From Parcubacteria group bacterium Gr01-1014_13 (GTDB lineage Bacteria > Patescibacteriota > Patescibacteriia > Magasanikbacterales > GWA2-37-8), in assembly GCA_007376295.1 (NCBI GenBank), contig VMGB01000001.1, positions 413,969 to 477,968 of the forward strand: 64,000 nt of DNA, in the 5' to 3' direction. The notes below the pieces were generated by a model. The model worked only from the letters and a program-made list of their open reading frames with translations, made no database searches and was not told where the DNA came from. A program made the position numbers and the translations under genes. Shown here in pieces: positions 1 through 42,864 of the stretch (position 1 is its first letter; each line of letters opens with the position of its first letter).

Positions 1-721
1 TAATGCCAACATAATAAACACCAGCCAAATACTATCGAAATGTCCGTGTACAACCCACTCAAATAAGGCTGCGGGTTGTAAAAACCACAATAACCAAAAA
101 TTACTCTTCTGCGAATTTTCATCTGATAAATCCAAAAACTTGTAAACCAGCCAACCGCATAATGCAAAAAATAGAGCGACTATAAATTTCCACAAAACAA
201 TAAAAGCAATTACATTGTCACGGCTTAAATCGTAAACGGCTCCAAAAACATGCGCCATTATCGGACCATATGGAAACCTATCCATTACTTTAAAAGCCGG
301 TTCCATAAAATGGTTTTCTCTGGGCCAATCCTGGGTAAATACATTCACCGTTCCTTGGCTAATGGATTTGCCTGCCCAAAAATAAAAGACTACATCGCCG
401 GATCCAAATGGCACCACAAGCGTGGCTAGAAAAATAAAAAGTGCAACGATACCCAAAATTTGTTTCTTTGATTTTGGTTTTTCACCCTCTTTAAACATTT
501 TCCAGAGAAAAAATCCCGAAGAAACCAAACAAGCAAGAATTATAAACAATGAGATAATTAAAATTAATTTCGAGACTGTATTTAACTGTGAAGCGCAAAA
601 AAGCCAGCCTTGCCCAAAGTAACACTTTTCCGCTAATACTTTAGGGTACATTGATAGGGAAAATGCGGCCAACATGCCCCACCCTATAAGACCAAGGATT
701 ATCGTCTTTTTAAAATTGGAC
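1..721 (-). CDS. polytopic membrane protein, 3'-part truncated by window edge
   Basis: Reverse-strand ATG at 719-721 translates MSNFKKTIILGLIGWGMLAAF..., hydrophobic throughout, no stop before coordinate 1; lies 10 bp downstream of the rfbH-like gene (same strand, likely same operon). Confidence 0.45.
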
Positions 722-730
722 ATACTTTAC

Positions 731-2032
731 TTAATACTGACTAACGAATTCTTCAAAACAAGTGACCATATACTCCATCATTTCAGTGGTGAGTCCAGGG
801 AAAACCCCGACCCAAAAAGTATTATTCATCACCAAATCGGCATTCTTTAAATCCCCCACCGCTCGATGTTCTATTTTATTTTCTATAAAATATGGCTGCT
901 TCACAATATTGCCGGCAAACAAATAACGTGTGGCAATTTGCTTATCATTCAAAAAATGGACGAGGGTATCGCGATCAAACGGCGCGTCTTCTTTTATTGT
1001 TAACAAAAATCCAAACCAGCTTGGTTCGGCATTATCAAGCCATTTGGGCAAAATAAAATAATCTTCAAATTTCTTTAGGCCTTTGTATAAAATATCAAAG
1101 TTTTCTCGGCGCTTGGCCACAAAACTCTCCAACTTTTCTAGTTGCGCCACTCCCAATGCAGCCTGCATGTCGGTAACCTTTAAATTGTAGCCGGTTTCGG
1201 AATAAATATATTTGTGATCATAACCATATGGCAAATTTCCCAGCTGCCAACCAAACCTCATACCGCAAGTGTTGTCGCAGCCTGGTTTACAATAACAATC
1301 TCTGCCCCAATCACGAAATGAACGAATAATTTTTGCCAAAATAGCATCGTTAGTAAACAACATGCCGCCTTCGCCCAAAGTAATATGATGAGCCGGATAA
1401 AAACTGCAGGTGGCAATATGGCCAAATGTTCCTGTGTGTTTGCCGTTATAAATTGAACCCAAAGCATCGCAGTTATCTTCTATCAACCAAAGATCGTGTT
1501 CTTTGCAAATAGCGGCAATTGCATCCAAATCAAATGGGTTACCCAAAGTGTGTGCTAAAAATATGGCTTTGGTTTTTGGAGTTACCGCCTTTCTAATTTC
1601 TTCGACATTGGCATTGTAGTAACCTAAATCAACATCTACCAAAACCGGTATTAATCTGTTTTGAATAATTGGATTTACGGTGGTAGGAAAACTCGTGGCC
1701 ACAGTGATTACTTCGTCGCCCGGATTTAATCGTTTAGCGCCCAGTTTTGCCGAAGTAAGAGCTGAGATGGCCAACAAGTTTGCTGATGATCCGGAGTTTA
1801 CCAAAATCGCTTGCTTGGCTCCCAACCAATATGCAAGTTTACTTTCAAATTCTTCAGTAAAATGACCTTCTGTCCACCAACCTTCGAGCACTGCTTCTAC
1901 CGCATTGATCATTTCTTTTTCATCAAAAACTTTGCCAGTTATGGGAACTGGCGAATCTCCGGGAATAAATGATTTTGGAGGGAATCTTTTATTGTATTCA
2001 GCCTGAATTTGATCTTTTAGATAATCTTCCAT
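731..2032 (-). CDS. rfbH: CDP-6-deoxy-D-xylo-4-hexulose-3-dehydrase (E1, DegT/DnrJ/EryC1 PLP/PMP-dependent family)
   Basis: 433 aa; DegT-family fold with the E1-specific cysteine cluster CYCKPGCDNTCGMRFGW ([2Fe-2S] site of RfbH/DdhC); co-clustered with rfbF and rfbG homologues. Confidence 0.8.
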   Translation of the reverse strand: MEDYLKDQIQAEYNKRFPPKSFIPGDSPVPITGKVFDEKEMINAVEAVLEGWWTEGHFTEEFESKLAYWLGAKQAILVNSGSSANLLAISALTSAKLGAKRLNPGDEVITVATSFPTTVNPIIQNRLIPVLVDVDLGYYNANVEEIRKAVTPKTKAIFLAHTLGNPFDLDAIAAICKEHDLWLIEDNCDALGSIYNGKHTGTFGHIATCSFYPAHHITLGEGGMLFTNDAILAKIIRSFRDWGRDCYCKPGCDNTCGMRFGWQLGNLPYGYDHKYIYSETGYNLKVTDMQAALGVAQLEKLESFVAKRRENFDILYKGLKKFEDYFILPKWLDNAEPSWFGFLLTIKEDAPFDRDTLVHFLNDKQIATRYLFAGNIVKQPYFIENKIEHRAVGDLKNADLVMNNTFWVGVFPGLTTEMMEYMVTCFEEFVSQY

Positions 2033-2040
2033 AGTGCTTT

Positions 2041-2592
2041 TTACTTTTTAAATACTTTTACCGCAGCTGGGATAACATATTTACGATGATGTGGAATTGT
2101 ATTTTTTGGCAAATGCTTTACATCCCACCAACGTCCTTCAGAATTTGGAACACCCTTGCATTTTATTAAATACACCATTGATAAAAACCAACCGCGCGGA
2201 TCGGGAATAAAAATTGAATCATGACATTTAAAATCACTAGTAATGGTTGTTTTAAACTCTCTTGAACTTAACCGATGAGCCACGTCCTTTGGCTGTTCAT
2301 TCGGACGAAAGACAGCTCCTGGTATATGCCACTGACCGGAGAAAGATTCGTGGACTCCACGTTTTAGCATAAAAACTTCTATGGCCCCGGTTTTTTTATT
2401 TTTCCGCAAACAAACAGCTTCAAAAGCCACACTTACAGACAGTCTGGCAATAGCTTCAAAAAGTCTGCTGCCCAAAGGTTTTTGCCCATTTTGAGATGTA
2501 AAAAAACTCTTATCATGCTGACCTTTTCCTTGCCAGGCATCTTCCACCAAGTCTTCAAATGAGGTAATAATTTCTTCTGAAGTTAATTGCAT
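2041..2592 (-). CDS. Nudix-fold hydrolase-like protein, divergent Nudix box (paralog 1 of 3)
   Basis: 183 aa; GQWHIPGAVFRPNEQPKDVAHRLSSREF aligns to the MutT Nudix box GxWxxPGG..E..7..REUxEE, but with R-L in place of R-E, as in GDP-mannose mannosyl hydrolase (NudD/WcaH). Shares AFEA, QWHxPG and HHRxxIPxA motifs with the two neighbouring paralogs. Own TTGCAT-N17-TAGAAT promoter at ~2600-2640. Confidence 0.5.
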   Translation of the reverse strand: MQLTSEEIITSFEDLVEDAWQGKGQHDKSFFTSQNGQKPLGSRLFEAIARLSVSVAFEAVCLRKNKKTGAIEVFMLKRGVHESFSGQWHIPGAVFRPNEQPKDVAHRLSSREFKTTITSDFKCHDSIFIPDPRGWFLSMVYLIKCKGVPNSEGRWWDVKHLPKNTIPHHRKYVIPAAVKVFKK

Positions 2593-2651
2593 ATCATAGA
2601 TAAATACGGCTTCTATTCTACCAATTAGACCTTAAAAATGCAAGATAAAAA

Positions 2652-2700
2652 AGAAGCCCTGCCACCTTTGTCCTATTGGACTTGGGTGGCAGGGCGTTAC
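2652..2700 (-). terminator. rho-independent terminator (stem gccctgccacc / ggtggcagggc plus T-run on minus strand)
   Basis: 11-bp perfect inverted repeat followed, on the minus strand, by cTTCTTTTTTATC; lies directly 3' of the 2727..3266 gene. Confidence 0.6.
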
Positions 2701-2726
2701 CGAGCTCTTCTGGGGCTGATCCTTTG

Positions 2727-3266
2727 CTAGTAGCGCGGATACTGCCAGTAGACTCGGGCTGCTTTCGGGATGATGATCTCGCGGTGGATATTTACCGTGT
2801 TACTAGGAAGATCGCTGACGGGAAACCACTTGTGACGATCGTCGATGCGTGGATCGCCAGCTAGCTTGACGATAAAGATGTGCGAGTGGACAGTCCCACG
2901 GTCTTCGGAGGTGATCTCTTTGTCGACCAGATCGAACTTTTCAATCCTGGTACCAAATTCCTCCTCCAATCGATTCGCCACGTCACGATCCTGCTCGCCA
3001 TGACGATAGAGTTTTCCAGGCGCATGCCACTGGCCCGGATAGGCAGTGTCATTCATAGCGCGTTGACGCAGAAAAACCTCATTGCCACCTCTGTCCGAAC
3101 GACGGAACACCATTGCCTCGAAGGCTGGCGTGGGCCACAGACGCATGATAGCATCGCACAAGGCGGTGCCAACGGGCTTGGTAGTATCCAATCGGTTCAG
3201 CATCTGAGCTAGAACCCTTTTATAGTCGTCGCTTGAAGGATCTTCCGGAACCACCGTGTTATTCAT
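2727..3266 (-). CDS. Nudix-fold hydrolase-like protein, divergent Nudix box (paralog 2 of 3)
   Basis: 179 aa; GQWHAPGKLYRHGEQDRDVANRLEEEFG is Nudix-like; its own promoter lies at 3324-3352 on the minus strand. Confidence 0.5.
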   Translation of the reverse strand: MNNTVVPEDPSSDDYKRVLAQMLNRLDTTKPVGTALCDAIMRLWPTPAFEAMVFRRSDRGGNEVFLRQRAMNDTAYPGQWHAPGKLYRHGEQDRDVANRLEEEFGTRIEKFDLVDKEITSEDRGTVHSHIFIVKLAGDPRIDDRHKWFPVSDLPSNTVNIHREIIIPKAARVYWQYPRY

Positions 3267-3323
3267 TGCGATTTCTCCTTTGTTTGTTCTCAGACCCTTA
3301 CGGGGGGTCTAAGGAGTAGTTGC

Positions 3324-3352
3324 TTTATATCCTAAATAAACAAAAAAGTCAA
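3324..3352 (-). promoter_or_regulatory. sigma70-type promoter: TTGACT(3347-3352)-N17-TATAAA(3324-3329), minus strand
   Basis: Read on the minus strand: aaCCTTGACTTTTTTgtttatttagga TATAAA; lies ~55 nt upstream of the start at 3266. Confidence 0.45.
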
Positions 3353-3425
3353 GGTTGGCTATTAAAAAAACGCCCTGCAGTCTTGTCCGATTTGGACTAG
3401 ATAAACAGGACGTCAATCTCCTTAA

Positions 3426-4013
3426 TTACTGGAAAGAACGTTTGGGTTGGCCTGATTGATTGCGCTTATGATGAGCTACAGCTGCCAACGGGATGATTGG
3501 ATCGGAGTGGTGCGGCACAATACTCTCTGGCAATTTACTGATGGGATGCCAATCGTGCCGAAGATCAAGCAATGGTTGCCCAACGAGGTCTACTAGAAAA
3601 ACATTTGAATGCACCGTACCCCTCTCTTCGTGATGTACTGGAAATCTACTCACAAAATGGAATGATTTGATTCCAGTATGGAAGAAATCTTCTTCAAGAC
3701 GTTTGGCAACATCTTGATCATGTTCCCCCTGTCGATATATAGAGCTGGGAGCACACCATTCGTTAGGGTGGGCAATGTCGTCTGGTGGGCGCTTGGTCAG
3801 ATAAACTTCGGTATCTTTACCACTACCACGAATATGCAAGGCTTCGAAAGCGACTGCTGGCTTTAGCCTCGTAAGAGCATTGCACAGCTTGGTTCCCTGA
3901 AACTTTCTCGGGTGAATTAGAGAAAGCAGGTCCGCTAACAACTCTTTGAGTTCGTCGCCGTCGAGAGATTTAGCTTTTTCTAAAATATGCCTTACATTTG
4001 CTGATTTTACCAT
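3426..4013 (-). CDS. Nudix-fold hydrolase-like protein, divergent Nudix box (paralog 3 of 3)
   Basis: The ORF track gives 3426..4061 (211 aa). The predicted promoter (-35 at 4088-4093, -10 at 4065-4070) places the TSS near 4058, so the internal Met (MVKSANV..., 4013) is the likelier start, giving ~196 aa. NEWCAPSSIYRQGEHDQDVAKRLEEDF is Nudix-like. Confidence 0.45.
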   Translation of the reverse strand: MVKSANVRHILEKAKSLDGDELKELLADLLSLIHPRKFQGTKLCNALTRLKPAVAFEALHIRGSGKDTEVYLTKRPPDDIAHPNEWCAPSSIYRQGEHDQDVAKRLEEDFFHTGIKSFHFVSRFPVHHEERGTVHSNVFLVDLVGQPLLDLRHDWHPISKLPESIVPHHSDPIIPLAAVAHHKRNQSGQPKRSFQ

Positions 4014-4064
4014 TCTTTTTTTCCTTTGGCACTTCCTATCCACCGTGGATAGAGAAGACATATC

Positions 4065-4093
4065 AAATTATCATTTATTAACAAAAAAGTCAA
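4065..4093 (-). promoter_or_regulatory. sigma70-type promoter TTGACT-N17-TAATTT (minus strand) overlapping the 7-bp inverted repeat gtcaagg-N4-ccttgac
   Basis: Minus strand reads aaaCCTTGACTTTTTTgttaataaatga TAATTT. The palindrome GTCAAGGtttcCCTTGAC (4089-4106) overlaps the -35 box and is a possible operator. On the plus strand, TTGACC(4102-4107)-N16-TACAAT(4124-4129) reads as a possible divergent or antisense promoter. Confidence 0.4.
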
Positions 4094-4121
4094 GGTTTCC
4101 CTTGACCTAATCCGGTTTTAG

Positions 4122-4754
4122 CTACAATATTTTGCGAGTAGAAATATGTTCATGCTCGATCACATTTCCCGCATCATCAAATAATACCCGCCACGCTTCG
4201 CCTTTTTCCAAATACATAACCCTGCCTTTTTCGTTTTTTAACTCCCTAAGCGACGGCAACGACTTGCCTGGATTCAGCAATTGCCACATTGCAAAAGCGG
4301 TCGGATCGCCGTGGCTAACCACAAACACGGTCTTGCCTTGATATTTGGCGAGGATATCCTTTATCGCCGCCACCATCCGAGCCGTAAAACTTGGCGGTCT
4401 TTCAATGCGCAAATTTTGTAAAGCCGGATGTGTATACGGATCTATGATTTCTGCCAACCAAACAAGGGATCTGCCAAACATGTCCGGCGAATCCGGGTCC
4501 TGTAAACGCGGATCAGGCTCAATTGACAAATTCAAGCCGGGATAATTACTCATAATTTCCGCGGAAGATTGCATGGCCCGCAAAAAATCACTGCTGACAA
4601 CCACGTCCGGTACCACCCCACTCTTACGAAAAATACGGCCAAGCACTCGCATTTTTTCTTTTCCAAATTCGCTTAAGGAAATAGTCCCATCGTAAATAAT
4701 TCCTTTCGGATTTTCCAAATCTCCGTGGCGAATTAAAAAGATAGTGGTTTGCAT
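4122..4754 (-). CDS. histidine phosphatase superfamily protein (phosphoglycerate-mutase-like)
   Basis: 210 aa; N-terminal LIRHGD catalytic RHG motif and a C-terminal SHG motif (VVSHGDPT). Confidence 0.6.
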   Translation of the reverse strand: MQTTIFLIRHGDLENPKGIIYDGTISLSEFGKEKMRVLGRIFRKSGVVPDVVVSSDFLRAMQSSAEIMSNYPGLNLSIEPDPRLQDPDSPDMFGRSLVWLAEIIDPYTHPALQNLRIERPPSFTARMVAAIKDILAKYQGKTVFVVSHGDPTAFAMWQLLNPGKSLPSLRELKNEKGRVMYLEKGEAWRVLFDDAGNVIEHEHISTRKIL

Positions 4755-4760
4755 AAAAAC

Positions 4761-4789
4761 TTTATACCGTAAATAAACGAAAAAGTCAA
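4761..4789 (-). promoter_or_regulatory. sigma70-type promoter TTGACT(4784-4789)-N17-TATAAA(4761-4766), minus strand; predicts a leaderless transcript
   Basis: Minus strand reads taaCCTTGACTTTTTcgtttatttacgg TATAAA, and the start codon sits at 4754, ~7 nt after the -10 box. Confidence 0.45.
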
Positions 4790-4797
4790 GGTTAAAC

Positions 4798-5736
4798 CTA
4801 AAAATTCACCCTCTCTCTTTCTATCACCAGTGGCCGTTCGCGTACTTGGGTGTAAATGGCTCCAATATACTCGCCCAAGATACCAATAAAAAACAACTGA
4901 ATGGAAGAAAAGAAAAAGATACCGATACTAAGCGGTGCTAAGCCGGCTTCAAACCGATCCCAAAAAAGCAGTTTGTAAATTAAATAAACTATACCGACTA
5001 TAAAACTGATAACTGACATGCCAAAACCAATAAAACTGGCCAGACGCAAAGGAATTTTGGAATGATTCACAAAACCAAGCATAGCCAAGTCGTAGAGCGA
5101 ATAAAAATTATTGCTGGTCTTACCTCTTTTTCTGGCTGGCTGAAAATAACTTACTTCGGCGCGATTAAAACCAAGTTCGGTAATTAAACCGCGAAAATAT
5201 GGATATGGATCTTTGAGCGTGCGCAAAACCGCAATAAATTTTTGGTCGTATAGACCAAAACCAGTGAAATTTTTTATTTGCTCAACATCCGATATTTTTT
5301 TTATTAAGTTATAATAAACTTTTCGTATAGCGAACATTATAGCATTCTCTTCACTTTTATTTTTTACTCCCACCACAATAGAACTTCCTTCTTCCCACTT
5401 CTGCAAAAATTCTTTAATTGTCGCTGGCGGATCTTGTAAGTCGGAGGCCATCAGCACCACAGCATCGCCATGCGCTTGCTGCAATCCATAGTATGGAGAA
5501 CGGATATGACCAAAATTTTTGATGTTAACGATAATTTTTACATTATAATCTACGGTAGCCAATTTTTTTAATACCGCCACGGTACTGTCTGTGGAAGCAT
5601 TATCAATAAAAATATGTTCATAGCGATATTGAGGCAGATCGGCAAATACGGCTTTAACCTGACTGTACAATTCTTCCACGTTTAATTCTTCGTTGTAGCA
5701 TGGGGTAACCACGCTAATAAGTTTTTTGTCTGACAT
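4798..5736 (-). CDS. family-2 glycosyltransferase with C-terminal TM helices (polyprenol-phosphate sugar transferase, DPM1/ArnC/GtrB-like)
   Basis: 312 aa; N-terminal VVTPCYNEE and DNASTD motifs (GT-A DxD-like); two C-terminal TM helices. Confidence 0.7.
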   Translation of the reverse strand: MSDKKLISVVTPCYNEELNVEELYSQVKAVFADLPQYRYEHIFIDNASTDSTVAVLKKLATVDYNVKIIVNIKNFGHIRSPYYGLQQAHGDAVVLMASDLQDPPATIKEFLQKWEEGSSIVVGVKNKSEENAIMFAIRKVYYNLIKKISDVEQIKNFTGFGLYDQKFIAVLRTLKDPYPYFRGLITELGFNRAEVSYFQPARKRGKTSNNFYSLYDLAMLGFVNHSKIPLRLASFIGFGMSVISFIVGIVYLIYKLLFWDRFEAGLAPLSIGIFFFSSIQLFFIGILGEYIGAIYTQVRERPLVIERERVNF

Positions 5737-5740
5737 ATAA

Positions 5741-6619
5741 TTATTCTTCTAATAAAGTCTGGTGATTTAAATTCGGTAAAGCTGTTTTGTAATAAGATAC
5801 AAGCTGAGCAATGGCAGAATCAATGGTTGTAAAGGTAATGCCAGGAAATGCTTGGTTCATAAGAGTGGAGTCACAAGAATATTCTTTTCCATACCCTTTG
5901 CTAGAGATAAGGACAGGTACTTCATAACCAATAGTCTGAATCACTTTTTCTGCAATAGTTTTTAAATCAATTGCTTCACCACGGCCAATATTAATAAAAG
6001 TTTCTTTTGGCTGGTTGGCAATGCATTTTTCTAAAATATGAATAAAATCATCAATAAAAAGATAATCGAACATCACATTTTGACGCATGGTAATTGGTTG
6101 GCGCAGAAGCGCCCGGCAAATAGCATTGGAAATAAAGCGAATCTCATAATCTTCGTATTTGCCAAAAACTGCGAATAAGCGTAAGTGAGTAATATAATCT
6201 ACTTTGTCTGCGTACTTGGCGCAGACATATTTGTACAAGCCGTATTCATCATTGGGTACGTGTTTATCAAAGTCGGTTTCTTTGACTTTAACGAGCGGCT
6301 GTTGTTTATCATACTCTGCTCCAGAACCAAGGGTAATCATGCGTTTAAAAAAAGGTTTGGCGCGTACCAGATTAAAAAACATCCTTAAATTAACATGGGT
6401 GATACCAAAGACATGTTGTTGTTTACGCGTACCGCCAATATTAGCGGCGTGAATCACAATATCTACCGGATTTTTCTCCAAAAAATTATACACCGCATCG
6501 CTGTCGGTGAGATCTAGTTCGGCATGGGTAGGCGCAATAATCTCGTACTTGCTACTGAGCTGTTCTTTTATATTGCGGCCGATAAATCCATTACCGCCAG
6601 TTAAAAATATTTTCATCAT
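5741..6619 (-). CDS. NAD(P)-dependent epimerase/reductase (extended SDR), candidate nucleotide-sugar 4-reductase
   Basis: 292 aa; N-terminal Rossmann motif GGNGFIGRN and a YxxxK active site (YGLYKYVCAKY); located in the CDP-sugar cluster. Confidence 0.65.
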   Translation of the reverse strand: MMKIFLTGGNGFIGRNIKEQLSSKYEIIAPTHAELDLTDSDAVYNFLEKNPVDIVIHAANIGGTRKQQHVFGITHVNLRMFFNLVRAKPFFKRMITLGSGAEYDKQQPLVKVKETDFDKHVPNDEYGLYKYVCAKYADKVDYITHLRLFAVFGKYEDYEIRFISNAICRALLRQPITMRQNVMFDYLFIDDFIHILEKCIANQPKETFINIGRGEAIDLKTIAEKVIQTIGYEVPVLISSKGYGKEYSCDSTLMNQAFPGITFTTIDSAIAQLVSYYKTALPNLNHQTLLEE

Positions 6620-6620
6620 A

Positions 6621-8426
6621 CTAATTTTTATCTTTAACGATCATATTTTCCGCCAATTCTTCTGGGCTTAAAAACGGAAACATGTTTTCGTATGGATTGG
6701 ACATCATCTTGCCGTCTGGACCTTTTTCAGAAGTAACACGCGGGATAAGAAGCTGCCACTCTGGCGTCATCACATCGCAAATCACCGGACCGTCATGATC
6801 AAGCGCTTCTTTTATTTTTTCATCTACTTCATCTACCGAAGAAATGCGTATACCTTTGATACCGTAGACTTCGGCAATCTTTAACGCATCCGGACACCAC
6901 ACACCAGAATCTGGACTCTCGCCGATCATACGGCCGCCAAAAAAATTACGCTGAGTATGACGCATTAGCAAATAGCCGTTGTTGTTGAAAATAAAAATTT
7001 TCAGTGGCAAATTGTTTATTTTCACTGTGGCCAGTTCCTGTAAATTCATTTGCATGCTGCCGTCACCGGTAATAACGATTGTAGGTTTTCGGCCCGCAGC
7101 AATACACGATCCAATGCCTCCTACCCAATAACCCATTGTAGAAATACCGCCAGTAGTAAGAAAACGCTGATCTTTTTTTATCTTCCATGTTTGAGCAGCT
7201 ACATGAAAACAGGATCCGGTATCAACTAAAATATTTGCGCCCGGCGGAGTCAGTTCGCTTAAGCGGTCGGTAAAATAATATGAATTGACCGGTTTTTCAT
7301 CTTTGTAAGAAGGCAAAACAACCGGATATTTTTTTCTCCAATTCTGACATATTGCCACCCACTGCGGCCTTTCGATTTCCGGCTGACTCTGTGCATATTT
7401 TGCAAGTTCAATCAAAAATTCTTTAGCATCAGCCAAAACAGGTAAAACAATATTTAAATCTGGTTTTTCCAGTTCTTTTTGGTCAATATCGACAACAATC
7501 TTTTCGGAATTACGGCCAAAATCTTTTACGTTGTAGCCGGTAAGCGATACGGTAAGGCGAGAACCAACCGCGATAATCAAATCAGCATTTTGCACAGCAA
7601 AATTAGCACTGCGTTCGCCATAAGTCCCCGGCCGGCCGGCATAAAGCGGGTGATCGCTAGTGATAATATCTAAACCTAAACGTGAAGTTAAAAGAGGAAT
7701 TTTTATTTTTTTTATTACTTCTTCAAAAGCCGGAATGCCGCCAGATAAACGTACGCCTTGTCCGAAAATAAATAACGGTCTTTCTGCCTTGGCAATACGC
7801 TCATAAACAGCTTTTACTTTTTCTGCTAACTCTGGAGATGGCTGAGAAATTTCTACCTCAACTTCTGCCGGTGGGCCATACGCATCAATGACTGACTGCG
7901 GCACTTCTGTGCGCTGCATATCTACCGGCACTTCAATCCACACCGGGCCGGGCCGGCCGGTAGTTACCTGCTTCCAAGCTTCGGCAACATATTCGCCGAT
8001 ACGGGCAGGATCATCTACGGTGACAAAATATTTGGTAATCGGCGCAACCATTTTGCGTATACTTATCCCCTGCACGCCAAATTGGCGAATATCAGTTTTT
8101 TCCGCGTATTGGACAATAGATAAATTTGATTGGCCGGAAATAACAATCATCGGAGAAGAATCTACCCAAGCGCCAACAACGCCATTTAAAGCATTTACCG
8201 CTCCCGGTCCGGCGGTAACCATCGCAATTGCCGGTTTGTTAGCCACTCGGCTGTAGGCCTCGGCAGCCATAGTTGCGCTTTGTTCATGGTGCGGACAGGT
8301 ATAATGAAATTGTTTGTTTTTGGCGACAGCGTCGTTTAAAAACATGGCATGTCCGCCGGTAATAGTAAAAACTTCGCTCACACCGCGCTCACCAAAGTAT
8401 TTGAAAATAAAGTCTGCGATAATCAT
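6621..8426 (-). CDS. thiamine-diphosphate-dependent enzyme of the acetolactate-synthase family (YerE-like candidate C2-branch transferase)
   Basis: 601 aa with three TPP-enzyme domains; TPP-binding motif GDGSMQMNLQELATV...NN; immediately adjacent to the aldolase/dehydrogenase pair and the CDP-sugar genes. Confidence 0.75.
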   Translation of the reverse strand: MIIADFIFKYFGERGVSEVFTITGGHAMFLNDAVAKNKQFHYTCPHHEQSATMAAEAYSRVANKPAIAMVTAGPGAVNALNGVVGAWVDSSPMIVISGQSNLSIVQYAEKTDIRQFGVQGISIRKMVAPITKYFVTVDDPARIGEYVAEAWKQVTTGRPGPVWIEVPVDMQRTEVPQSVIDAYGPPAEVEVEISQPSPELAEKVKAVYERIAKAERPLFIFGQGVRLSGGIPAFEEVIKKIKIPLLTSRLGLDIITSDHPLYAGRPGTYGERSANFAVQNADLIIAVGSRLTVSLTGYNVKDFGRNSEKIVVDIDQKELEKPDLNIVLPVLADAKEFLIELAKYAQSQPEIERPQWVAICQNWRKKYPVVLPSYKDEKPVNSYYFTDRLSELTPPGANILVDTGSCFHVAAQTWKIKKDQRFLTTGGISTMGYWVGGIGSCIAAGRKPTIVITGDGSMQMNLQELATVKINNLPLKIFIFNNNGYLLMRHTQRNFFGGRMIGESPDSGVWCPDALKIAEVYGIKGIRISSVDEVDEKIKEALDHDGPVICDVMTPEWQLLIPRVTSEKGPDGKMMSNPYENMFPFLSPEELAENMIVKDKN

Positions 8427-8427
8427 A

Positions 8428-9438
8428 CTATTGTTTTTTGTGCTTAGCCAACTCCATCGCCACCTCCACTACTATATCTTCTTGTCCGCCCACGACTCGG
8501 CGTTTTCCCAGTTCCATAAAAATTTCCCGCGGATCAACACCAAATCTTTCGGCCGCGCGCTTTACCGGTAAAGTAAACACCGAAAAAACTCCGGCCAAAC
8601 CGCTGGCAATGGTAATAGAATCAATTTCCAATAATTTTTTCATGAACGTTGTCACGATCTGATCGCTTACATCCATTAAAATATTTAAATCAACTGGAAT
8701 TTGATAGCCCATTTTTTTAAGCAGCGCCACTAACACTTCAATCGGGCAATTGCCGGCTCCCGGACCAAATCCGCGAATCGTACCATCAGCAATACGAGCG
8801 CCGACTTCCAGCGCCATCCAAGTATGCGCCACAGCCATGCCCAAATTGTTGTGGGCATGAAAACCGATCGGTACCGGCAGATTTTCTACTAAATATCCAA
8901 TTGTTTCTTTTACCATTGCGGGTGTAGAAGCACCGGCTGAATCCATAATGATAATTCCTTGCGCGCCATAACTTACCATTTTTTTTGCTTCTTCAAGAAG
9001 GCGTTCTTTAGTTGTCATGTGATACATCATGAGCACTCCATAAACTTCTTTTCCCAGTTCGGCTACATACTTTATATATTGCTGAGTAACATCGGCCTCA
9101 GTACAATGCGCGGCCACACAAACCAAATCAACTCCAAGTTTCATGGCTGGAGCCAAATCGTTTGCGATAGTGCCAAAACCAGGCAATAGAAAAATACCCA
9201 AACGAGTTTGTTTTAATTCTTTGCGCGCGACTGCCAATAATTCTAAATCCGGTGTACCCGAAATGCCTACTTGCACAGATGAAGCGCCAATACCATTGCC
9301 ATGGCCAACAATAACCACATATTCACCAGCTTTATCTACGGCACGACAATAGCGCTCCACTTGTTCAGTGGTAAGTTGGTGCGAAATAGCATGTTGGCCA
9401 TCACGCAAAGTAGAATCAAAAATCATTAAATCTTTCAT
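8428..9438 (-). CDS. 4-hydroxy-2-oxovalerate aldolase-like (DmpG/MhpE/BphI family, HMGL-like TIM barrel)
   Basis: 336 aa; DSTLRDGQHAISHQLT, HAHNNLGMAVAHT and GFGPGAGNCPIE motifs match DmpG. Confidence 0.75.
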   Translation of the reverse strand: MKDLMIFDSTLRDGQHAISHQLTTEQVERYCRAVDKAGEYVVIVGHGNGIGASSVQVGISGTPDLELLAVARKELKQTRLGIFLLPGFGTIANDLAPAMKLGVDLVCVAAHCTEADVTQQYIKYVAELGKEVYGVLMMYHMTTKERLLEEAKKMVSYGAQGIIIMDSAGASTPAMVKETIGYLVENLPVPIGFHAHNNLGMAVAHTWMALEVGARIADGTIRGFGPGAGNCPIEVLVALLKKMGYQIPVDLNILMDVSDQIVTTFMKKLLEIDSITIASGLAGVFSVFTLPVKRAAERFGVDPREIFMELGKRRVVGGQEDIVVEVAMELAKHKKQ

Positions 9439-9439
9439 A

Positions 9440-10315
9440 TTATTTGCTCAATATTTTTTTACGAGCATATTCTTCCGCAACCCGAATAGCGGCGCAAGTA
9501 ATAATATCCAAATTGCCAGCATAGGCAGGCAAAAAATCGCCGCGGCCGACAACTTCAATAGTAACAGTAACTTTGCCTTTTTCAGCTGTCGGACCCATAG
9601 CCAAACGATAACCGGGCACATACTGCTGTATAGAAGCAGCCACTTCATTAATTTTCTTAGTTAAAGCTTCAATATTTGGCTCTGGAATTAAAGCATAAAG
9701 AGTATTATGCATTAAAATAGGCGGTTCAGCCGGATTTAAAATTAAAATCGCTTTGGCTTCCGGTACGCCGGAAAAACTTTTTAAGGCATTAGTAGTAGTA
9801 TTAATATATTCTTCAATATTCGCTCTAGTGCCTGACCCAGCTGATTTGGAAGCAACACTACCGACAACTTCGATATATTTTGTTTCCGGATGAACTTCCA
9901 TTATCGCTTTGGCAATTGGAATAAGTGTCTGACCGCCACAGGTAACTAGATTGACGTTTGGCACTTCCAAAGCTTCGGCTAAATTTATAGCCGGTACGCA
10001 CATCATACCGATTCTCGACGGAGTAAGGTCAATAGTAAATTTGCCTAAATTTTTTAAAATAGGCGCATGTTCAGTATGATAAACAGCGCTGGTCGTATCA
10101 AAAACAATTTCACAGTAATCCGGATTATTGATAATAGCCCCCAGAGAATCAAATGAAGTAGGTACGCCCATCGCCTTTGCCCGGGCAATACCTTCGGAGT
10201 CTTTATTTCGGCCGGTAAAAATTCCACATTCCAATACTTCGCTGCGGCCTACTTTATGCAACAAATCACTGCCAATATTTCCGGTACCGATTATGCCTAC
10301 CTTAATTTTTTTCAT
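9440..10315 (-). CDS. acetaldehyde dehydrogenase (acetylating), DmpF/MhpF family
   Basis: 291 aa; KVGIIGTGNIGSDL, VTCGGQTLIP (catalytic Cys), SKSAGSGTRANIEE, NPAEPPILM, YVPGYRL and LPAYAGNLDI motifs align closely with DmpF. Confidence 0.8.
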   Translation of the reverse strand: MKKIKVGIIGTGNIGSDLLHKVGRSEVLECGIFTGRNKDSEGIARAKAMGVPTSFDSLGAIINNPDYCEIVFDTTSAVYHTEHAPILKNLGKFTIDLTPSRIGMMCVPAINLAEALEVPNVNLVTCGGQTLIPIAKAIMEVHPETKYIEVVGSVASKSAGSGTRANIEEYINTTTNALKSFSGVPEAKAILILNPAEPPILMHNTLYALIPEPNIEALTKKINEVAASIQQYVPGYRLAMGPTAEKGKVTVTIEVVGRGDFLPAYAGNLDIITCAAIRVAEEYARKKILSK

Positions 10316-10320
10316 ACTCG

Positions 10321-11286
10321 TTACTTACTTTGCAGCTGGTCTTTGTACCATGAGTAGGTTTCTAAAATTCCTTGATTAAAATCGTATTTAGATTTCCATC
10401 CCAAAATCTTTTCTGCTTTCTCAAAATTTAAACTCTGCTCCGGAATCTCATTTTTCTGATTATTCACTATTTTATACTCAATCTTCGCCCCAATAACCTG
10501 AGAAACTTTGGCAATCAAATCTAAAACAGAAAAATTAAAACCGGAACTAAAATTAAATGCCTCGCCTTTTGCTTTTTCCATCTGTTCAGCCAGAGAAATA
10601 TACCCGTCTACAACATCTTTTACATAAACATAATCACGTTTAAAATTACCATCGCTGCGCAGTTCTAACACTTCATTTTTGATGGCCGCCTTCATCATTC
10701 CTGGAACAATACGGTTGAAATTTAAATCGCCCGGACCAAAAATATTGCCGAAACGAGAAACTGTCACCGGCAGATTATATGTCTTGGCATAAGTGAGTGC
10801 TAAAAGGTCGGTGCAAGATTTGGAAACATCATATGGATGATCACCGCGCAGAGGCTGATCTTCAAGAGCAGTTAGGCAATCTTTACCATAGGCTTTGTCG
10901 CTTGAGGCGACTACAACACCATGGATATATGGTGACATCCTGGCTGCTTCCAAAATATGGACAGTACCCATAATGTTGGTGGCAAGCGTTTCATATGGAT
11001 TTATGAAAGCGGTGGCCACGATTGGCTGGGCCGCAATATGAAAAATATAATTTACTTCGTATTTGGTAATAACATCGGCGATGCGTTCGCGATCTTTTAG
11101 GTCTCCATTTACCACAACTACCTTTTCATCAAAATTATTTTTAAAAAAATACGCTTCCGGATCACGGCTGCGCGAGAGCGCGATAATGCGGCCGGTATCC
11201 ATGGACAAAAGACGTTCAATCAAATGCGAACCTACTAATCCAGTGGCTCCGGTTACCAAAATTGTTTTGCCGCGCAAATTGCTCAT
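10321..11286 (-). CDS. rfbG: CDP-glucose 4,6-dehydratase
   Basis: 321 aa extended SDR; GATGLVGSHL Rossmann motif and YDVSKS active site; adjacent to rfbF. Confidence 0.75.
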   Translation of the reverse strand: MSNLRGKTILVTGATGLVGSHLIERLLSMDTGRIIALSRSRDPEAYFFKNNFDEKVVVVNGDLKDRERIADVITKYEVNYIFHIAAQPIVATAFINPYETLATNIMGTVHILEAARMSPYIHGVVVASSDKAYGKDCLTALEDQPLRGDHPYDVSKSCTDLLALTYAKTYNLPVTVSRFGNIFGPGDLNFNRIVPGMMKAAIKNEVLELRSDGNFKRDYVYVKDVVDGYISLAEQMEKAKGEAFNFSSGFNFSVLDLIAKVSQVIGAKIEYKIVNNQKNEIPEQSLNFEKAEKILGWKSKYDFNQGILETYSWYKDQLQSK

Positions 11287-11300
11287 ACTCTGCCTCTAAA

Positions 11301-12101
11301 TTAATTCTGCCAAATCTTCCAAAAAGGATCTTTGTGCCAATTCTCATTTAGTTCCTCTACTTCTTTGTATGTATCCATACACTTCCATTTTCCTTGGTGA
11401 GTATAGACCGATAACTCCCCTTTTTCTGCCAGCATTGGAAAAAGTGATTCAATCATGGTGCCTTCAGCAATCAAATCTAGCGCTTCCGGCTTAAAAACCA
11501 TGAAGCCGCCATTTATAAAATCATTACCTCTTTCTTCTTCAGCACCACGGGTAACTTTGTGCTGAAAAAAATCAACTGCCTTTTTTGTATCGGGATGAAT
11601 ATTTAAAAATCCAAAACGACTAGCCGGACGCACGGCGGTAATGGTCGCCAGAGTATTTTGTTTTTTATGAAAGTCCACTAATTCTTGGAGGTTTATATCA
11701 GCCACACCATCCCCATAAGTTATCATGACATCTTCACCCGGATTTAGGTGCTTTCGCAATTGACGAATACGTTCGCCGGTCAAACTGTTTAATCCGGTTT
11801 CGGCAAAAGTTATTTTGAAGTCATCACAATCATTGTTGTGAAAGATTAGGTCGTTATTTTTGGTATGCAAAGTAAAATCATTGAGCAAACTGCGCCAATT
11901 CAAAAAGTACTCCTTTATCATGCTGCCTTTGTAACCAAGAGCCAGAACAAAATCATTAAATCCATGATGGGCATATATTTTCATGATGTGCCACAAAATC
12001 GGCTTGCCTCCAACTTCCACAAGCGGCTTTGGTTTAAATTCTGTTTCTTCTTTCATGCGGGTGCCGGTGCCGCCGCACAGAATGATTGTTTTCATAAGCA
12101 T
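11301..12101 (-). CDS. rfbF: glucose-1-phosphate cytidylyltransferase
   Basis: 266 aa; N-terminal ILCGGTGTRMKEETEFKPKPLVEVGGKPILWHIM matches the RfbF/DdhA nucleotidyltransferase signature. Confidence 0.8.
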   Translation of the reverse strand: MLMKTIILCGGTGTRMKEETEFKPKPLVEVGGKPILWHIMKIYAHHGFNDFVLALGYKGSMIKEYFLNWRSLLNDFTLHTKNNDLIFHNNDCDDFKITFAETGLNSLTGERIRQLRKHLNPGEDVMITYGDGVADINLQELVDFHKKQNTLATITAVRPASRFGFLNIHPDTKKAVDFFQHKVTRGAEEERGNDFINGGFMVFKPEALDLIAEGTMIESLFPMLAEKGELSVYTHQGKWKCMDTYKEVEELNENWHKDPFWKIWQN

Positions 12102-12124: not shown

Positions 12125-14197
12125 CTACTTTATTGTCTGCTTGCCTCCCGAAACTTCTGGTGCCAGAATTTGCTGTATTACACTCTGTTCTTCCGGCTTA
12201 AAAACCACTCCATTTTTTTCAGCTAAATTTAGGACTTCTATCGCCTGAGGCATTTTTCCAAGCAGTCTGTATAAATAAGCTAGACGCCAATAACCCTCGC
12301 TTACTTTCGGATCATCATCAATAGTTTGTTTCAATAATTTTACAGCATCATCAGTTTTCCCAATCTGCAAGTAAAAATTAGCCAAATTGTAAATTATTTG
12401 TTGACGCTTAGGAGAATAACTCAACGCTATTTCCAAATTGTCTCCATATAATTCAATGTAACTTGGATCATTGGTTATAGAATAACCGGCCTGGCCTAAC
12501 TGGCTTAAGGTCAGGTAATTTCTTATATCATACGGATGCAGAATAACATTTGCCTGCATCGCTTCAATCCCTATTTTTAATATTTCCATGCGTTGATCTT
12601 TGTTAAGTTTATTGTTTTCACTGTTTAAAACTTGACCAACGGTACGCGTTATATCACTGCGGATATCATCGATATGAGGTGAATTAAAGGCTAAAGCGGA
12701 TTTCATGGCCTCTATGCCTTGCGCTGGCTGATTAGTTAAGTACTTTAAAGCATCAAGCGTTTTCATATTCGCTCTGGCCGGTTGGATTTCAAAAATAAAT
12801 ATTGATAACAAGACTAATAAGCTTGTGGTGACCATCGCGCCTGAACCGATAGTTTTGTTCAAAGAAATATTCCCGGCTTTGCCATTATTTTTTGTTCCGT
12901 TAACAACCAACTCTTCCCGTTTTAAAGATAAACTGCCAACCATAGCCAACCAGAACATGAAATATAAGTATGAGGTTGGATTTTCAAACACCGTAACATT
13001 CTGCACAAGATGAGCAACTAAAAATGAAATTCCAATCACGGCTATATGCAAATCTAAAATCTGTTTCCTTCTGGCCCATACCAAAGTAAAGATGGCGGCA
13101 AAAAAGATAAGCAGATAACTGGCTAGACCAAATGCTCCCTGCACGGCCAAAGTATTCATTATAATATTGTGGGCGTTATCAAACCATGTTTCACCGTAAC
13201 CAAACTGTAAAGATCGAGATTGATAATTCTTGTTAAAAGCATAAAAGAAATTATTCGGACCCCAACCAAAAACTGGTTTTTCTTTCCAACTCTCTATAGC
13301 CACTTCCCACGCTATCCAACGAGGACTGTTTTTAATACCTTCTAAGGAAGTATTCAAAGTACGGCCAACAGCCGGGATATTTTGCACAAAACTTGTCTGT
13401 CTAAAAGCATAAAGCACAGAAATGACCGCAACCCCGGCCACAGCTACGCCCACCAGAATCTTTCTTGTTTTAGGAAAATCACGCAAAACGATAATATAGC
13501 CAAGTAAAGCCACACCCATACCGGCAACCAAACCAAGTATTGACCCGCGAGTGCCGCTGAAAAACATGCCTAACAAAGCTAAGAAACCCGCCCCTACTTC
13601 TAACCACTTCCAGGTTTTATTTTGTTCTTTAATAAAAAGTAAAAACGAAACAAAAATTAGAAACAGGCCATAACCACCCACATAAATTGAGTTTCCTAAA
13701 GTGCTCGCGACTCTGCTAATGTCCTGATTCAGCAATAAACCAACTTTGAAATGCTGAATAACGCCAATAAACATCGCGACCGAACCAGCTAACAAAAATA
13801 CTTTTAAAGCCTTATTCCAATCTGTCCAATTTTTAAATACTGAACTGCAGATGAAATAATAAGCAACATAATGAAAGATGGTAAATAGTCCCAACATTCT
13901 TTCGTGATTATCCCAAAAACTATGATAAGGATCTACGCCGACAAAAGTAGAGATAGCAAAACTGACCAAAAAGGTGGCTAATGCCAAATTTAACAGAGAA
14001 AATTTTGGCTTAAACTCCTGCCAATTAATAAGCAGTAACAAGATGTAACAACCGATCATTACTGTCACTAGCGACCGAAACAATAAAATTTTGGGTACGA
14101 TAAAAGGAAAAATAAAGGACATGGGCAGAACTAGCAGCGGCACAAAAAAGGTCGCATACATTAAAAACTTGATGGCTTTAACTAGATTTTGCTTCAT
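12125..14197 (-). CDS. polytopic membrane protein with O-antigen-ligase-like (Wzy_C) core fused to C-terminal TPR repeats
   Basis: 690 aa; ~12 TM helices with a periplasmic loop SGTRGSILGL typical of O-antigen ligase/Wzy_C. The C-terminal ~250 aa is soluble and TPR-like (LAYLYRLLGKMPQAIEVL...). Confidence 0.5.
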   Translation of the reverse strand: MKQNLVKAIKFLMYATFFVPLLVLPMSFIFPFIVPKILLFRSLVTVMIGCYILLLLINWQEFKPKFSLLNLALATFLVSFAISTFVGVDPYHSFWDNHERMLGLFTIFHYVAYYFICSSVFKNWTDWNKALKVFLLAGSVAMFIGVIQHFKVGLLLNQDISRVASTLGNSIYVGGYGLFLIFVSFLLFIKEQNKTWKWLEVGAGFLALLGMFFSGTRGSILGLVAGMGVALLGYIIVLRDFPKTRKILVGVAVAGVAVISVLYAFRQTSFVQNIPAVGRTLNTSLEGIKNSPRWIAWEVAIESWKEKPVFGWGPNNFFYAFNKNYQSRSLQFGYGETWFDNAHNIIMNTLAVQGAFGLASYLLIFFAAIFTLVWARRKQILDLHIAVIGISFLVAHLVQNVTVFENPTSYLYFMFWLAMVGSLSLKREELVVNGTKNNGKAGNISLNKTIGSGAMVTTSLLVLLSIFIFEIQPARANMKTLDALKYLTNQPAQGIEAMKSALAFNSPHIDDIRSDITRTVGQVLNSENNKLNKDQRMEILKIGIEAMQANVILHPYDIRNYLTLSQLGQAGYSITNDPSYIELYGDNLEIALSYSPKRQQIIYNLANFYLQIGKTDDAVKLLKQTIDDDPKVSEGYWRLAYLYRLLGKMPQAIEVLNLAEKNGVVFKPEEQSVIQQILAPEVSGGKQTIK

Positions 14198-14284
14198 AAG
14201 ATATTTAAAAAAGGCTTAAAAGGCTCGAAAGGCCTAAAAAGCTTGATTGATTAAAATTACACTAAATATATTAGCTGTTTTTGC

Positions 14285-42109: not shown

Positions 42110-42116
42110 ATATAAG

Positions 42117-42863
42117 CTATTTTACGACATATTTATCAAACCCGCTAGTCATCGTGGCAATACCATCCTTATCAATCATATATCCTTCAAAACCTGCTAG
42201 TCTCTCTATAAAATCTATTCCTTTTTTTCCCATAGCAAAGGCGGTAGTGGCGAACCTGTCTGCCTCATAGATATTTGGACCAATTACGGATAAACTGACA
42301 ATTTCAGTAATTAATTCTTTGGTCTGATGGGGATTGTAAATATGCTGACCTCGGATATAGGTACCTGACGTGGCTACTCCAACATCTGTGAGAGAAATAA
42401 CTTTAATTATTTCTTCGGCATTAAAAGGATTGCGTATCCCCACTCGCCAATTTTTACCTTGACTGTTTTGACCGTGCATCTCGATATCTCCTCCAGCTTC
42501 TACATAAAAATTTTTAAAACCTTGTTCTTGCAAAAGTTTGGCGGCATTATTTATTGCCCAACCTTTTACCAAGCCGGAAGGATCGTATTTTCCATCTTTG
42601 GATTTAATATCAAAGTATCCGTTTGTTATTTTCTTAGTTTCTTCACACAGCCGCCAGACTTCTAACATGTCTTGGCTATAATCTTTTTCTTTTATTTCGC
42701 CACGATTAATTTGACTTATATCGCTTTCGTCTTTATAGGTACTAAACTTTTTGTCTACATAATCAAAGTAAGAAAAAACTTTATCAAAAATATCTTCGGT
42801 AGCAAACGAATCACAAATTTCTACGGTAATTGGCATGCCCATCAGCTGTCGTGTTTGTTTCAT
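42117..42863 (-). CDS. apbE: FAD:protein FMN transferase (ApbE family)
   Basis: 248 aa; the ApbE core (MGMPITVEI, GWAINNAAKLL and ATSGTY motifs) is recognisable. The protein is short for the family and may be N-terminally trimmed, since the adjacent gene ends 1 nt upstream. Confidence 0.65.
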   Translation of the reverse strand: MKQTRQLMGMPITVEICDSFATEDIFDKVFSYFDYVDKKFSTYKDESDISQINRGEIKEKDYSQDMLEVWRLCEETKKITNGYFDIKSKDGKYDPSGLVKGWAINNAAKLLQEQGFKNFYVEAGGDIEMHGQNSQGKNWRVGIRNPFNAEEIIKVISLTDVGVATSGTYIRGQHIYNPHQTKELITEIVSLSVIGPNIYEADRFATTAFAMGKKGIDFIERLAGFEGYMIDKDGIATMTSGFDKYVVK

Positions 42864-42864
42864 G

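Follow-up and report, generated by a model that had tools for sequence, protein, structure and literature searches.

A 64-kb stretch of contig VMGB01000001.1 (positions 413,969–477,968; hereafter the window), from the assembly of Parcubacteria group bacterium Gr01-1014_13, carries near its start a gene cluster that probably encodes an erwiniose-type pathway for an acyl-branched deoxysugar in a Magasanikbacteria-like bacterium of the Candidate Phyla Radiation (CPR; Patescibacteria). Erwiniose is 3,6,8-trideoxy-4-C-(1-hydroxyethyl)octose. We hold this assignment, drawn from homology and gene context, with reasonable confidence, and the locus is most likely a further example of a published pathway, not a new one. 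Positions given below are coordinates in the window, and related metagenomic loci are labelled L001–L017.

The published precedent comes from Steitz et al. (2022, Angew. Chem.), who took yerE/yerF as their starting point and identified a set of four neighbouring genes in the plant pathogen Pectobacterium atrosepticum SCRI1043. Their products are a thiamine diphosphate (ThDP)-dependent enzyme (ErwE), the reductase ErwF, the aldolase ErwI, which resembles BphI (43% identity), and ErwJ, an acetaldehyde dehydrogenase similar to BphJ; the four genes adjoin those for cytidine diphosphate (CDP)-4-keto-3,6-dideoxyglucose (PMC9306805). With a ketone analogue of the sugar as acceptor, purified ErwE used 4-hydroxy-2-oxopentanoate, favouring its R form, but not pyruvate (PMC9306805). 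In the deduced route, ErwJ converts acetyl-CoA to acetaldehyde, which ErwI combines with pyruvate to give 4-hydroxy-2-oxopentanoate; ErwE attaches the carbon skeleton of the keto acid, CO2 being lost, to the keto sugar, and ErwF reduces the side chain to yield erwiniose (PMC9306805). YerE-like enzymes are treated as a recognised subclass in a 2025 review, which cites an in-silico survey of >200 YerE-like enzymes (PMC12247030). A full-text literature search linking the aldolase name with CPR taxa returned no match.

An earlier, sequence-only reading of this DNA had proposed a branched-chain sugar pathway in which an aldolase/dehydrogenase pair feeds a ThDP enzyme. That central idea holds, given the synteny, the hidden Markov model (HMM) scores and the erwiniose precedent. 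A C4 branch derived from 4-hydroxy-2-oxovalerate, which it had raised as one option, is now the best-supported version and matches the published mechanism (PMC9306805). Its headline analogy, the YerE-type transfer of a C2 unit from pyruvate, is probably not the reaction of this enzyme, because ErwE takes 4-hydroxy-2-oxopentanoate and not pyruvate. It had also stated that DmpG/DmpF-type pairs have no described role in nucleotide-sugar synthesis, which is out of date, as ErwE/F/I/J were described in 2022 (PMC9306805).

A YerE/ErwE-like carboligase beside a DmpFG-like pair

The ThDP enzyme scored 352 against TIGR00118 (acetohydroxyacid synthase, AHAS), for which the cut-off is 538, and fell far below the cut-offs of the remaining AHAS models. 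Its top PDB match was JanthE (8rph; 387 bits, 35.5% identity, full length), compared to 246 bits for the PpYerE-type 5ahk and ≤228 bits for AHAS structures. As a negative control, tblastn against plasmids returned only IlvB, and these true IlvB proteins were 30–32% identical to the ThDP enzyme. Neither ilvN, ilvC and ilvD nor meta-cleavage genes were found in the 64-kb window. Assignment as IlvB or another biosynthetic acetolactate synthase was rejected, given scores below all AHAS cut-offs and no ilv context, and assignment of the aldolase as LeuA/CimA was rejected on HMM scores; both had been named beforehand as identities that would undo the proposal. The adjoining short-chain dehydrogenase/reductase (SDR), whose distant relatives are nucleotide-sugar 4-ketoreductases, is presumed to act as the side-chain ketoreductase.

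Both members of the aldolase/dehydrogenase pair passed the equivalog cut-offs of their families. The dehydrogenase scored 373 bits against TIGR03215 (cut-off 282), matched 7z3s (294 bits) and DmpF (1nvm_B, 237 bits) among PDB structures; its catalytic cysteine is retained as Cys126, and a GxGxxG motif is present at the N terminus. The aldolase scored 374 bits against TIGR03217 (4-hydroxy-2-oxovalerate aldolase; cut-off 286) and retains the catalytic and metal-binding residues Arg12, Asp13, His16, His194 and His196, as well as an intact communication domain. The pair had been called close homologues of DmpG and DmpF; family membership stands, while 'close' was an overstatement, as the aldolase is 41% identical to DmpG.

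The aldolase departs from the catabolic enzymes at two positions. Phe83 and Phe285 sit where BphI has Leu87 and Tyr290, and all four solved catabolic aldolases have Leu/Tyr there. Phe was found at the BphI 87 position in 115 of the 120 nearest aldolase homologues and at the 290 position in 119 of them. BphI is strictly 4S; Y290F abolishes this stereocontrol, and the L87N/Y290F and L87W/Y290F double variants cleave only the 4R enantiomer (PMC3962088). By analogy, and given that ErwE favours the R form, the Phe/Phe pair is a plausible natural counterpart of the 4R inversion engineered in BphI, and the product is probably 4R because Phe83 and Phe285 replace the Leu/Tyr pair that enforces 4S in the catabolic enzymes. 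BphI Leu89, which limits aldehyde length (PMC3962088), is retained as Leu85, and this fits acetaldehyde as substrate and a C4 branch. Across a library of 50% representatives, the aldolase superfamily was mixed at the 87/290 positions (Leu/Tyr, His/Phe, Phe/Phe and Phe/His classes), so that Phe/Phe marks a clade and not one side of a clean two-way split. The His/Phe combination was seen in another sugar cluster containing a ThDP enzyme. Phe/His occurred in 83 of the 150 best representatives in this library (P0276 and similar); the members inspected were ~650–700 aa long with Tyr at the position of DmpG His21, and appear to form a large, distinct fused family.

The choice of donor separates this C4 route from a yersiniose-type C2 branch, in which the ThDP enzyme would use pyruvate (or acetaldehyde) to install an acetyl group, and the pair would supply or balance acetaldehyde and pyruvate or extend the side chain afterwards. 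YerE is the founding member of the family, and JanthE, the nearest solved relative, takes pyruvate as well as 4-hydroxy-2-oxovalerate; the donor is not fixed by sequence alone. However, pyruvate needs no dedicated supply, and in the one characterised cluster that has these genes the ThDP enzyme, ErwE, rejected it; on that basis Steitz et al. tested and excluded an order in which the aldolase acts after branching (PMC9306805). The adjacency of the aldolase and ThDP genes is also conserved across phyla, and together with the Phe/Phe signature it lends indirect support to a ThDP enzyme that would accept (R)-4-hydroxy-2-oxopentanoate and not pyruvate. ThDP enzymes from clusters with two aldolase types were 35–42% identical to that of the window, compared to 55–95% for clusters with the DmpFG-like pair only, which suggests that the donor co-varies with the aldolase genes. 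We consider a C2 branch improbable at this locus.

Probable enzymes of the CDP-sugar precursor and the E3 question

A core of rfbF, rfbG and rfbH had been read from the sequence, and this stands fully for rfbH and as a probable assignment for the other two. RfbH scored 691 bits against NF011936 (cut-off 423) and aligned end to end with the E1 structure of Yersinia pseudotuberculosis (3bcx, 556 bits). Its His215 aligns with His220 of E1, the residue replacing the Schiff-base Lys of aminotransferases, and the cysteine pattern Cys188-X57-Cys246-X1-Cys248-X7-Cys256 is present. A His in place of this Lys and a four-Cys [2Fe-2S] motif are features described for E1 (PMC8987622), and the identity of RfbH as a genuine E1-type 3-dehydrase is strongly supported by its sequence. 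The RfbF-like protein reached 281 bits against TIGR02623 (cut-off 300), by far its top NCBIfam match, and its gene is kept in all related loci. For the RfbG-like protein, TIGR02622 (CDP-glucose 4,6-dehydratase) was the top model at 194 bits (cut-off 278), compared to 159 for the deoxythymidine diphosphate (dTDP)-glucose dehydratase model; it is probably a CDP-glucose 4,6-dehydratase.

The E3 reductase architecture (Fer2 + FAD_binding_6 + NAD_binding_1) was absent from all sizeable open reading frames (ORFs) of the window, extending to all 64 kb the earlier remark that the cluster has no E3, and no E3 gene was found in those related loci, four in number, for which annotation had been precomputed. 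The absence is genuine but nothing special to this locus, as those four loci share it. Nor is it an obstacle to the erwiniose-type route, because SpnQ, an E1 relative, functions with general ferredoxin or flavodoxin reductases (PMC8987622). The only module in the window resembling ferredoxin-NADP reductase (FNR) is fused to an RnfD/NqrB-like membrane domain in a 505-aa protein encoded 28 kb away (40592-42109). As a dedicated E3 this fusion was rejected, since it matches flavohaemoprotein and Nqr-type reductases and not E3. Its gene lies beside those for an ApbE flavin transferase and FMN_bind proteins; next come genes for a 794-aa protein that combines DAO and Rieske domains and for a cupredoxin protein, and this redox module (40592-47415) is unusual for a CPR genome.

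Without E3, RfbH might be inactive or separately regulated, and C4 branching would then take place on CDP-4-keto-6-deoxyglucose with the 3-OH kept, giving a 6,8-dideoxy branched octose. In keeping with this, no E3 lies within 64 kb, rfbH lies 2.7 kb beyond the glycosyltransferase gene and past a terminator-like hairpin, and L002, a related locus, contains the core block but has no RfbH gene inside 10 kb. However, RfbH is intact, very close to a functional E1 and has every cofactor motif; it is retained at the same position in all close relatives as well as in L013 and L014; and the case of SpnQ shows that housekeeping reductases can serve enzymes of the E1 type (PMC8987622). Retention of the 3-OH therefore appears unlikely, and a 3,6-dideoxy precursor is preferred.

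Conservation of the cluster across phyla

The RfbF-RfbG-DmpF-DmpG-ThDP-SDR block (plus RfbH and a family 2 glycosyltransferase, GT2) occurs in L001, L002, L006-L009, L013 and L014, representing Patescibacteria, Desulfotomaculaceae and Omnitrophota (L005 is the same locus as L001, and L003 and L004 the same as L002). The recurrence of dmpFG homologues beside rfb genes, proposed earlier as a genome-context check, is thus observed. A contig scan queried with the ThDP protein of the window returned eight relatives, all of them uncultured metagenome-assembled genomes (MAGs), and Pectobacterium was not among these eight. The full arrangement, from the gene encoding a membrane protein with Wzy_C and tetratricopeptide repeat (TPR) domains through to the membrane protein gene after rfbH, recurs in the close relatives L001, L006, L007 and L009, although contig ends remove part of it in L007 and L008. 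A more remote contig of the Magasanikbacteria, whose ThDP enzyme is 61% identical, also holds the core block, as do one contig of the Desulfotomaculaceae and one of the Omnitrophota. The SDR gene directly follows the ThDP gene in L001, L002, L006-L008, L010, L013 and L014.

Conservation of this kind bears on the possibility that the DmpFG-like pair is a catabolic module (meta-cleavage or fermentative) standing by chance beside an acetolactate synthase. The pair does pass the DmpF and DmpG equivalog cut-offs, and public annotations name the ThDP enzyme 'acetolactate synthase'. However, the enzyme falls short of every AHAS model and is only 30–32% identical to real IlvB, the window holds neither meta-cleavage nor ilvN/ilvC/ilvD genes, the aldolase does not have the Leu/Tyr pair of the catabolic enzymes, and the genes are separated by 1-nt gaps in a block found in at least three phyla, always within nucleotide-sugar clusters. 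Such conservation excludes chance juxtaposition with a catabolic module, and this explanation is effectively refuted by synteny; we give it next to no weight.

The related loci also differed in detail. In L009 the SDR gene is 1.7 kb downstream of the ThDP gene, and an archaeal-type phosphoenolpyruvate carboxylase gene (PEPcase_2; L009:11805-13310) on the opposite strand lies between them; the cluster is otherwise collinear. The ThDP enzyme of the window is 89% identical to that of L001 (L001:10001-11791), compared to only 52–77% for the flanking cluster genes, which hints at recombination inside the cluster or unusually strong constraint on the enzyme. Downstream of the core block in L002 (L002:6161-20053, Magasanikbacteria) are, instead of RfbH, methyltransferase genes (one with Methyltransf_13/14 matches) and three radical-SAM/SPASM genes, which suggests a differently tailored branched sugar. 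An extra HpcH/HpaI-family aldolase gene occurs beside the ThDP gene in L014:11060-13617, L015:2090-4621 and L017:1249-3800 (Omnitrophota, Margulisiibacteriota and a metagenome), lying between the ThDP and DmpG-like genes in L014 and L017. These two-aldolase variants may make longer or different branches.

Several records collinear with the window at this locus (L001/L005, L006, L007, L008 and L010) are labelled 'uncultured Gammaproteobacteria' and 'Candidatus Udaeobacter'. Synteny between the L006 contig and the window continues past the cluster, and the RpoD (housekeeping sigma factor) of the window is 81–90% identical to Parcubacteria, Patescibacteria and Magasanikbacteria proteins. These findings point to a Magasanikbacteria-like CPR bacterium as the source of the window, and the taxonomic labels of those MAGs are probably wrong.

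Proposed pathway and its weak points

In the favoured pathway, the RfbF-like and RfbG-like proteins would first make CDP-4-keto-6-deoxyglucose, from which the E1-type RfbH would strip the 3-OH to give CDP-4-keto-3,6-dideoxyglucose, a general ferredoxin or flavodoxin reductase being assumed as electron donor. The DmpF-like enzyme would reduce acetyl-CoA to acetaldehyde and hand this to the DmpG-like aldolase for condensation with pyruvate to 4-hydroxy-2-oxopentanoate, probably as the 4R form. The YerE/ErwE-like ThDP enzyme would then decarboxylate this keto acid and place a C4 acyl-anion equivalent on C4 of the keto sugar, and the adjoining SDR would reduce the new side-chain ketone to give CDP-3,6,8-trideoxy-4-C-(1-hydroxyethyl)octose (erwiniose or a stereoisomer). 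In the most speculative step, a GtrB-like GT2 may load the sugar on polyprenyl phosphate, from which a polytopic transferase could decorate a surface glycoconjugate outside the membrane.

Several observations weigh against this pathway. Orthology to ErwE/F/I/J is indirect, being drawn from likeness to the published gene set and its description, and the choice of donor is not readable from family membership because JanthE accepts both donors. The RfbF-like protein (slightly) and the RfbG-like protein (clearly) score below their equivalog cut-offs. With no E3, the 3-deoxygenation step stays putative; between the core block and rfbH stand three unrelated genes as well as a terminator-like hairpin; and L002, having no RfbH nearby, implies that the ThDP enzyme may also accept a 6-deoxy-4-keto sugar. 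The predicted stereochemistry leans on mutagenesis of a 41%-identical enzyme. Lastly, we know of no described precedent for a GtrB-type enzyme using a CDP-sugar.

Gene layout and transcription

The minus strand carries, from position 14197 down to position 1, a head-to-tail series of 13 complete genes and a truncated one. The genes named in the sequence-only reading were all located where it had placed them, each on this strand (Table 1). In order of transcription they encode the Wzy_C/TPR protein, RfbF-like, RfbG-like, DmpF-like and DmpG-like proteins, the ThDP enzyme, the SDR, the GT2, a phosphatase, three NUDIX-like proteins, RfbH and a membrane protein. Intergenic gaps from the Wzy_C gene to the GT2 gene are 1–23 nt. 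Three of them are exactly 1 nt (dehydrogenase/aldolase, aldolase/ThDP and ThDP/SDR); a 1-nt gap beside the ThDP gene had been noted before, and the same spacing thus holds on either side of it and within the pair. The ~2.7 kb between the core block and rfbH hold the phosphatase gene, the three NUDIX-like genes and one terminator-like hairpin.

A transcription unit may start at the promoter-like site upstream of the Wzy_C/TPR gene, and this first unit may end at the hairpin downstream of the phosphatase gene. Should the two sites be real, a second transcription unit would comprise rfbH and the NUDIX-like genes. Promoter and terminator calls are consensus matches only (the scan gave 31 terminator-like sites, compared to 17.9 ± 3.9 in shuffles), and the operon boundaries are accordingly not treated as established.

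Table 1 Features of the predicted branched-sugar locus, listed in order of transcription (window coordinates).
Feature	Position	Strand	Basis or remark
Promoter-like site, TTGACA-17-TAATAT	14268-14296	−	Consensus scan; just upstream of Wzy_C/TPR gene; host promoters uncharacterised
Polytopic membrane protein, 690 aa, Wzy_C (O-antigen ligase/polymerase-like) and C-terminal TPR	12125-14197	−	Pfam
RfbF-like glucose-1-phosphate cytidylyltransferase (probable)	11301-12101	−	Pfam NTP_transferase; TIGR02623
RfbG-like NDP-hexose 4,6-dehydratase	10321-11286	−	SDR; Pfam GDP_Man_Dehyd/Epimerase; TIGR02622
ErwJ/DmpF/BphJ-like acylating acetaldehyde dehydrogenase	9440-10315	−	TIGR03215
ErwI/DmpG/BphI-like class II pyruvate aldolase	8428-9438	−	TIGR03217; DmpG_comm domain
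YerE/ErwE-like ThDP-dependent carboligase, 601 aa, three domains	6621-8426	−	GDG ThDP motif at residue 454
YerF/ErwF-like SDR, presumed side-chain ketoreductase	5741-6619	−	Pfam Epimerase/RmlD_sub_bind
GtrB/ArnC-like GT2 with probable C-terminal transmembrane hairpin	4798-5736	−	Probable polyprenyl-phosphate glycosyltransferase
Histidine-phosphatase-superfamily protein	4122-4754	−	Pfam His_Phos_1
Terminator-like hairpin, 9-bp stem then TTTTGTT	4087-4108	−	Consensus scan; within 60-nt gap 3′ of phosphatase gene
Three tandem paralogous NUDIX-like genes	3426-4061, 2727-3266, 2041-2592	−	Paralogy from alignment
RfbH/DdhC/AscC (E1), pyridoxamine 5′-phosphate (PMP)- and [2Fe-2S]-dependent CDP-4-keto-6-deoxyglucose 3-dehydrase	731-2032	−	NF011936
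Polytopic membrane protein, 5′ part (241 codons), leaves window	1-723	−	Translation; begins 7 nt after rfbH

Glycosyltransferase, membrane proteins and accessory genes

The top PDB match of the GT2 was the GtrB protein sll0501 (5ekp; 156 bits, full length), compared to 91–95 bits for ArnC and 55 for DPMS. It scored 185 bits against the NCBIfam model PgfS, under the cut-off, and was also under the cut-off of the ArnC model; hydrophobic C-terminal segments are visible in its sequence. The GT2 proteins of the Desulfotomaculaceae and Omnitrophota clusters are 63–65% identical to it, from which we conclude that this gene travels with the cassette.

Two polytopic membrane proteins flank the cluster. 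The Wzy_C/TPR gene, 23 nt upstream of the RfbF-like gene, occupies the same position in L001, L006, L008 and L009 (44–74% identity). The truncated protein encoded after rfbH may be a GT-C-type transferase. Its homologues are likewise encoded immediately after rfbH in L001, L006, L007 and L009 (34–58% identity); the one in L001 is recorded as PF26314 MptA_B_family, and those in L006 and L009 have no Pfam match. A Wzx-like flippase is also encoded after rfbH in relatives. Together, the GtrB/ArnC-like GT2, the polytopic protein and the flippase suggest polyprenyl-phosphate delivery to an extracytoplasmic acceptor, which is the weakest part of the model.

Among the relatives, only L009 has the phosphatase gene. 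The three NUDIX-like proteins (183, 179 and 211 aa) have a Nudix box of R-L-E-E-E-F-G, one residue under the canonical, and the Pfam NUDIX match was significant for the middle copy only. One or two copies lie between GT2 and RfbH in L001, L006, L007 and L009, and none in the Desulfotomaculaceae or Omnitrophota clusters. These genes are lineage-specific accessories that may act in CDP-sugar hydrolysis or by-product clearance. A role as EvaA-type 2,3-dehydratases (EvaA has a Nudix fold) was set aside, as the proteins are single-domain, ~180–210 aa and lineage-specific.

Significance of the locus

Magasanikbacteria-like CPR bacteria have small genomes and are reported to lack lipopolysaccharide (LPS). 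Taken as a whole, the picture we would draw, tentatively and with somewhat less than an even chance of every element being right, is of such a bacterium committing >13 kb to an erwiniose-like C4-branched octose, with a naturally 4R-specific DmpG-type aldolase, an E1 without a dedicated E3, polyprenyl-phosphate delivery onto a surface protein or cell-wall polymer, and a cassette (including the GT2) spread horizontally among Patescibacteria, Firmicutes and Omnitrophota. This suggests that ultra-small, probably host-attached bacteria show an exotic branched deoxysugar on their surface, which may matter for host recognition or phage evasion.

The established view of acyl-branched sugar synthesis is unchanged. 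What the locus adds to the published picture is the Phe/Phe pair of the aldolase, the absence of E3 from the window and from four annotated related loci, and the conserved GtrB-like GT2. In MAGs, CPR ones included, such genes carry the labels 'acetolactate synthase', '4-hydroxy-2-oxovalerate aldolase' and 'acetaldehyde dehydrogenase', which might wrongly be taken for signs of amino-acid synthesis, breakdown of aromatics or fermentation; a surface-sugar pathway is the better reading. The aldolase clade offers natural candidates for 4R-selective pyruvate aldolases, and the ErwE-like carboligases found here are candidates for a class wanted as biocatalysts for tertiary alcohols (PMC12247030).

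Elsewhere in the window, the region 52648-56950, in which GC content drops to 0.35–0.36, looks like an integrated mobile element. It carries a LOOT RNA (Rfam RF03000, 97.9 bits) directly upstream of a TnsA-like endonuclease gene, an unassigned 350-aa ORF and a serine recombinase gene, with its 3′ end overlapping a tRNA gene (56842-56913).

Comparison with known systems

The erwiniose cluster of Pectobacterium shares with the window the same four-gene logic beside CDP-4-keto-3,6-dideoxyglucose genes, the same predicted donor and C4 branch, and an aldolase and dehydrogenase at a similar distance from BphI/DmpG (aldolase identity 41% in the window, 43% for ErwI). The hosts differ, a member of the Patescibacteria on the one hand and a Gram-negative bacterium with O-antigen on the other, as does the gene order, which is J-I-E-F in the window and E-F-J-I in Pectobacterium by accession order (WP_011093010-WP_011093013). 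The window is further set apart by having no E3, and by its embedded GtrB-like glycosyltransferase, probably acting on polyprenyl phosphate, and lineage-specific NUDIX-like and phosphatase genes.

In the yersiniose A system of Yersinia pseudotuberculosis (YerE/YerF), a ThDP carboligase of the same family likewise acts on a CDP-4-keto-3,6-dideoxyhexose, followed by an SDR, with RfbF/G/H upstream; however, the donor is pyruvate, giving a C2 branch, and no aldolase/dehydrogenase pair is associated. The caryophyllose, gastriose and R. palustris C6-branched clusters (MMAR_2331/2332, MygE/MygI) follow one common scheme with the window, in which an aldolase makes a hydroxy-keto acid and a ThDP enzyme resembling YerE is paired with a reductase. 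They differ in using longer aldehydes and, where the aldolase is specified, one from another family; MMAR_2331 resembles the aldolase/citrate lyase family (the R. palustris aldolase is 58% identical to it), whereas the window has only the DmpFG-type pair and L014, L015 and L017 carry both aldolase types.

With the catabolic DmpFG/BphIJ/HsaFG complexes, the pair of the window has in common its fold, its catalytic residues including the Cys of the dehydrogenase, and the communication domain, and it passes the same equivalog HMMs. It differs in presumably running in the synthetic direction, in lying in a glycan locus and not a meta-cleavage operon, and in having Phe/Phe in place of Leu87/Tyr290. 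Finally, among solved structures JanthE (8rph) and PpYerE (5ahk) come closest to the ThDP enzyme, JanthE aligning over the full length with its C-terminal extension included. The ThDP motif is the canonical GDG in the enzyme of the window and CDG in JanthE, which is promiscuous for donors.

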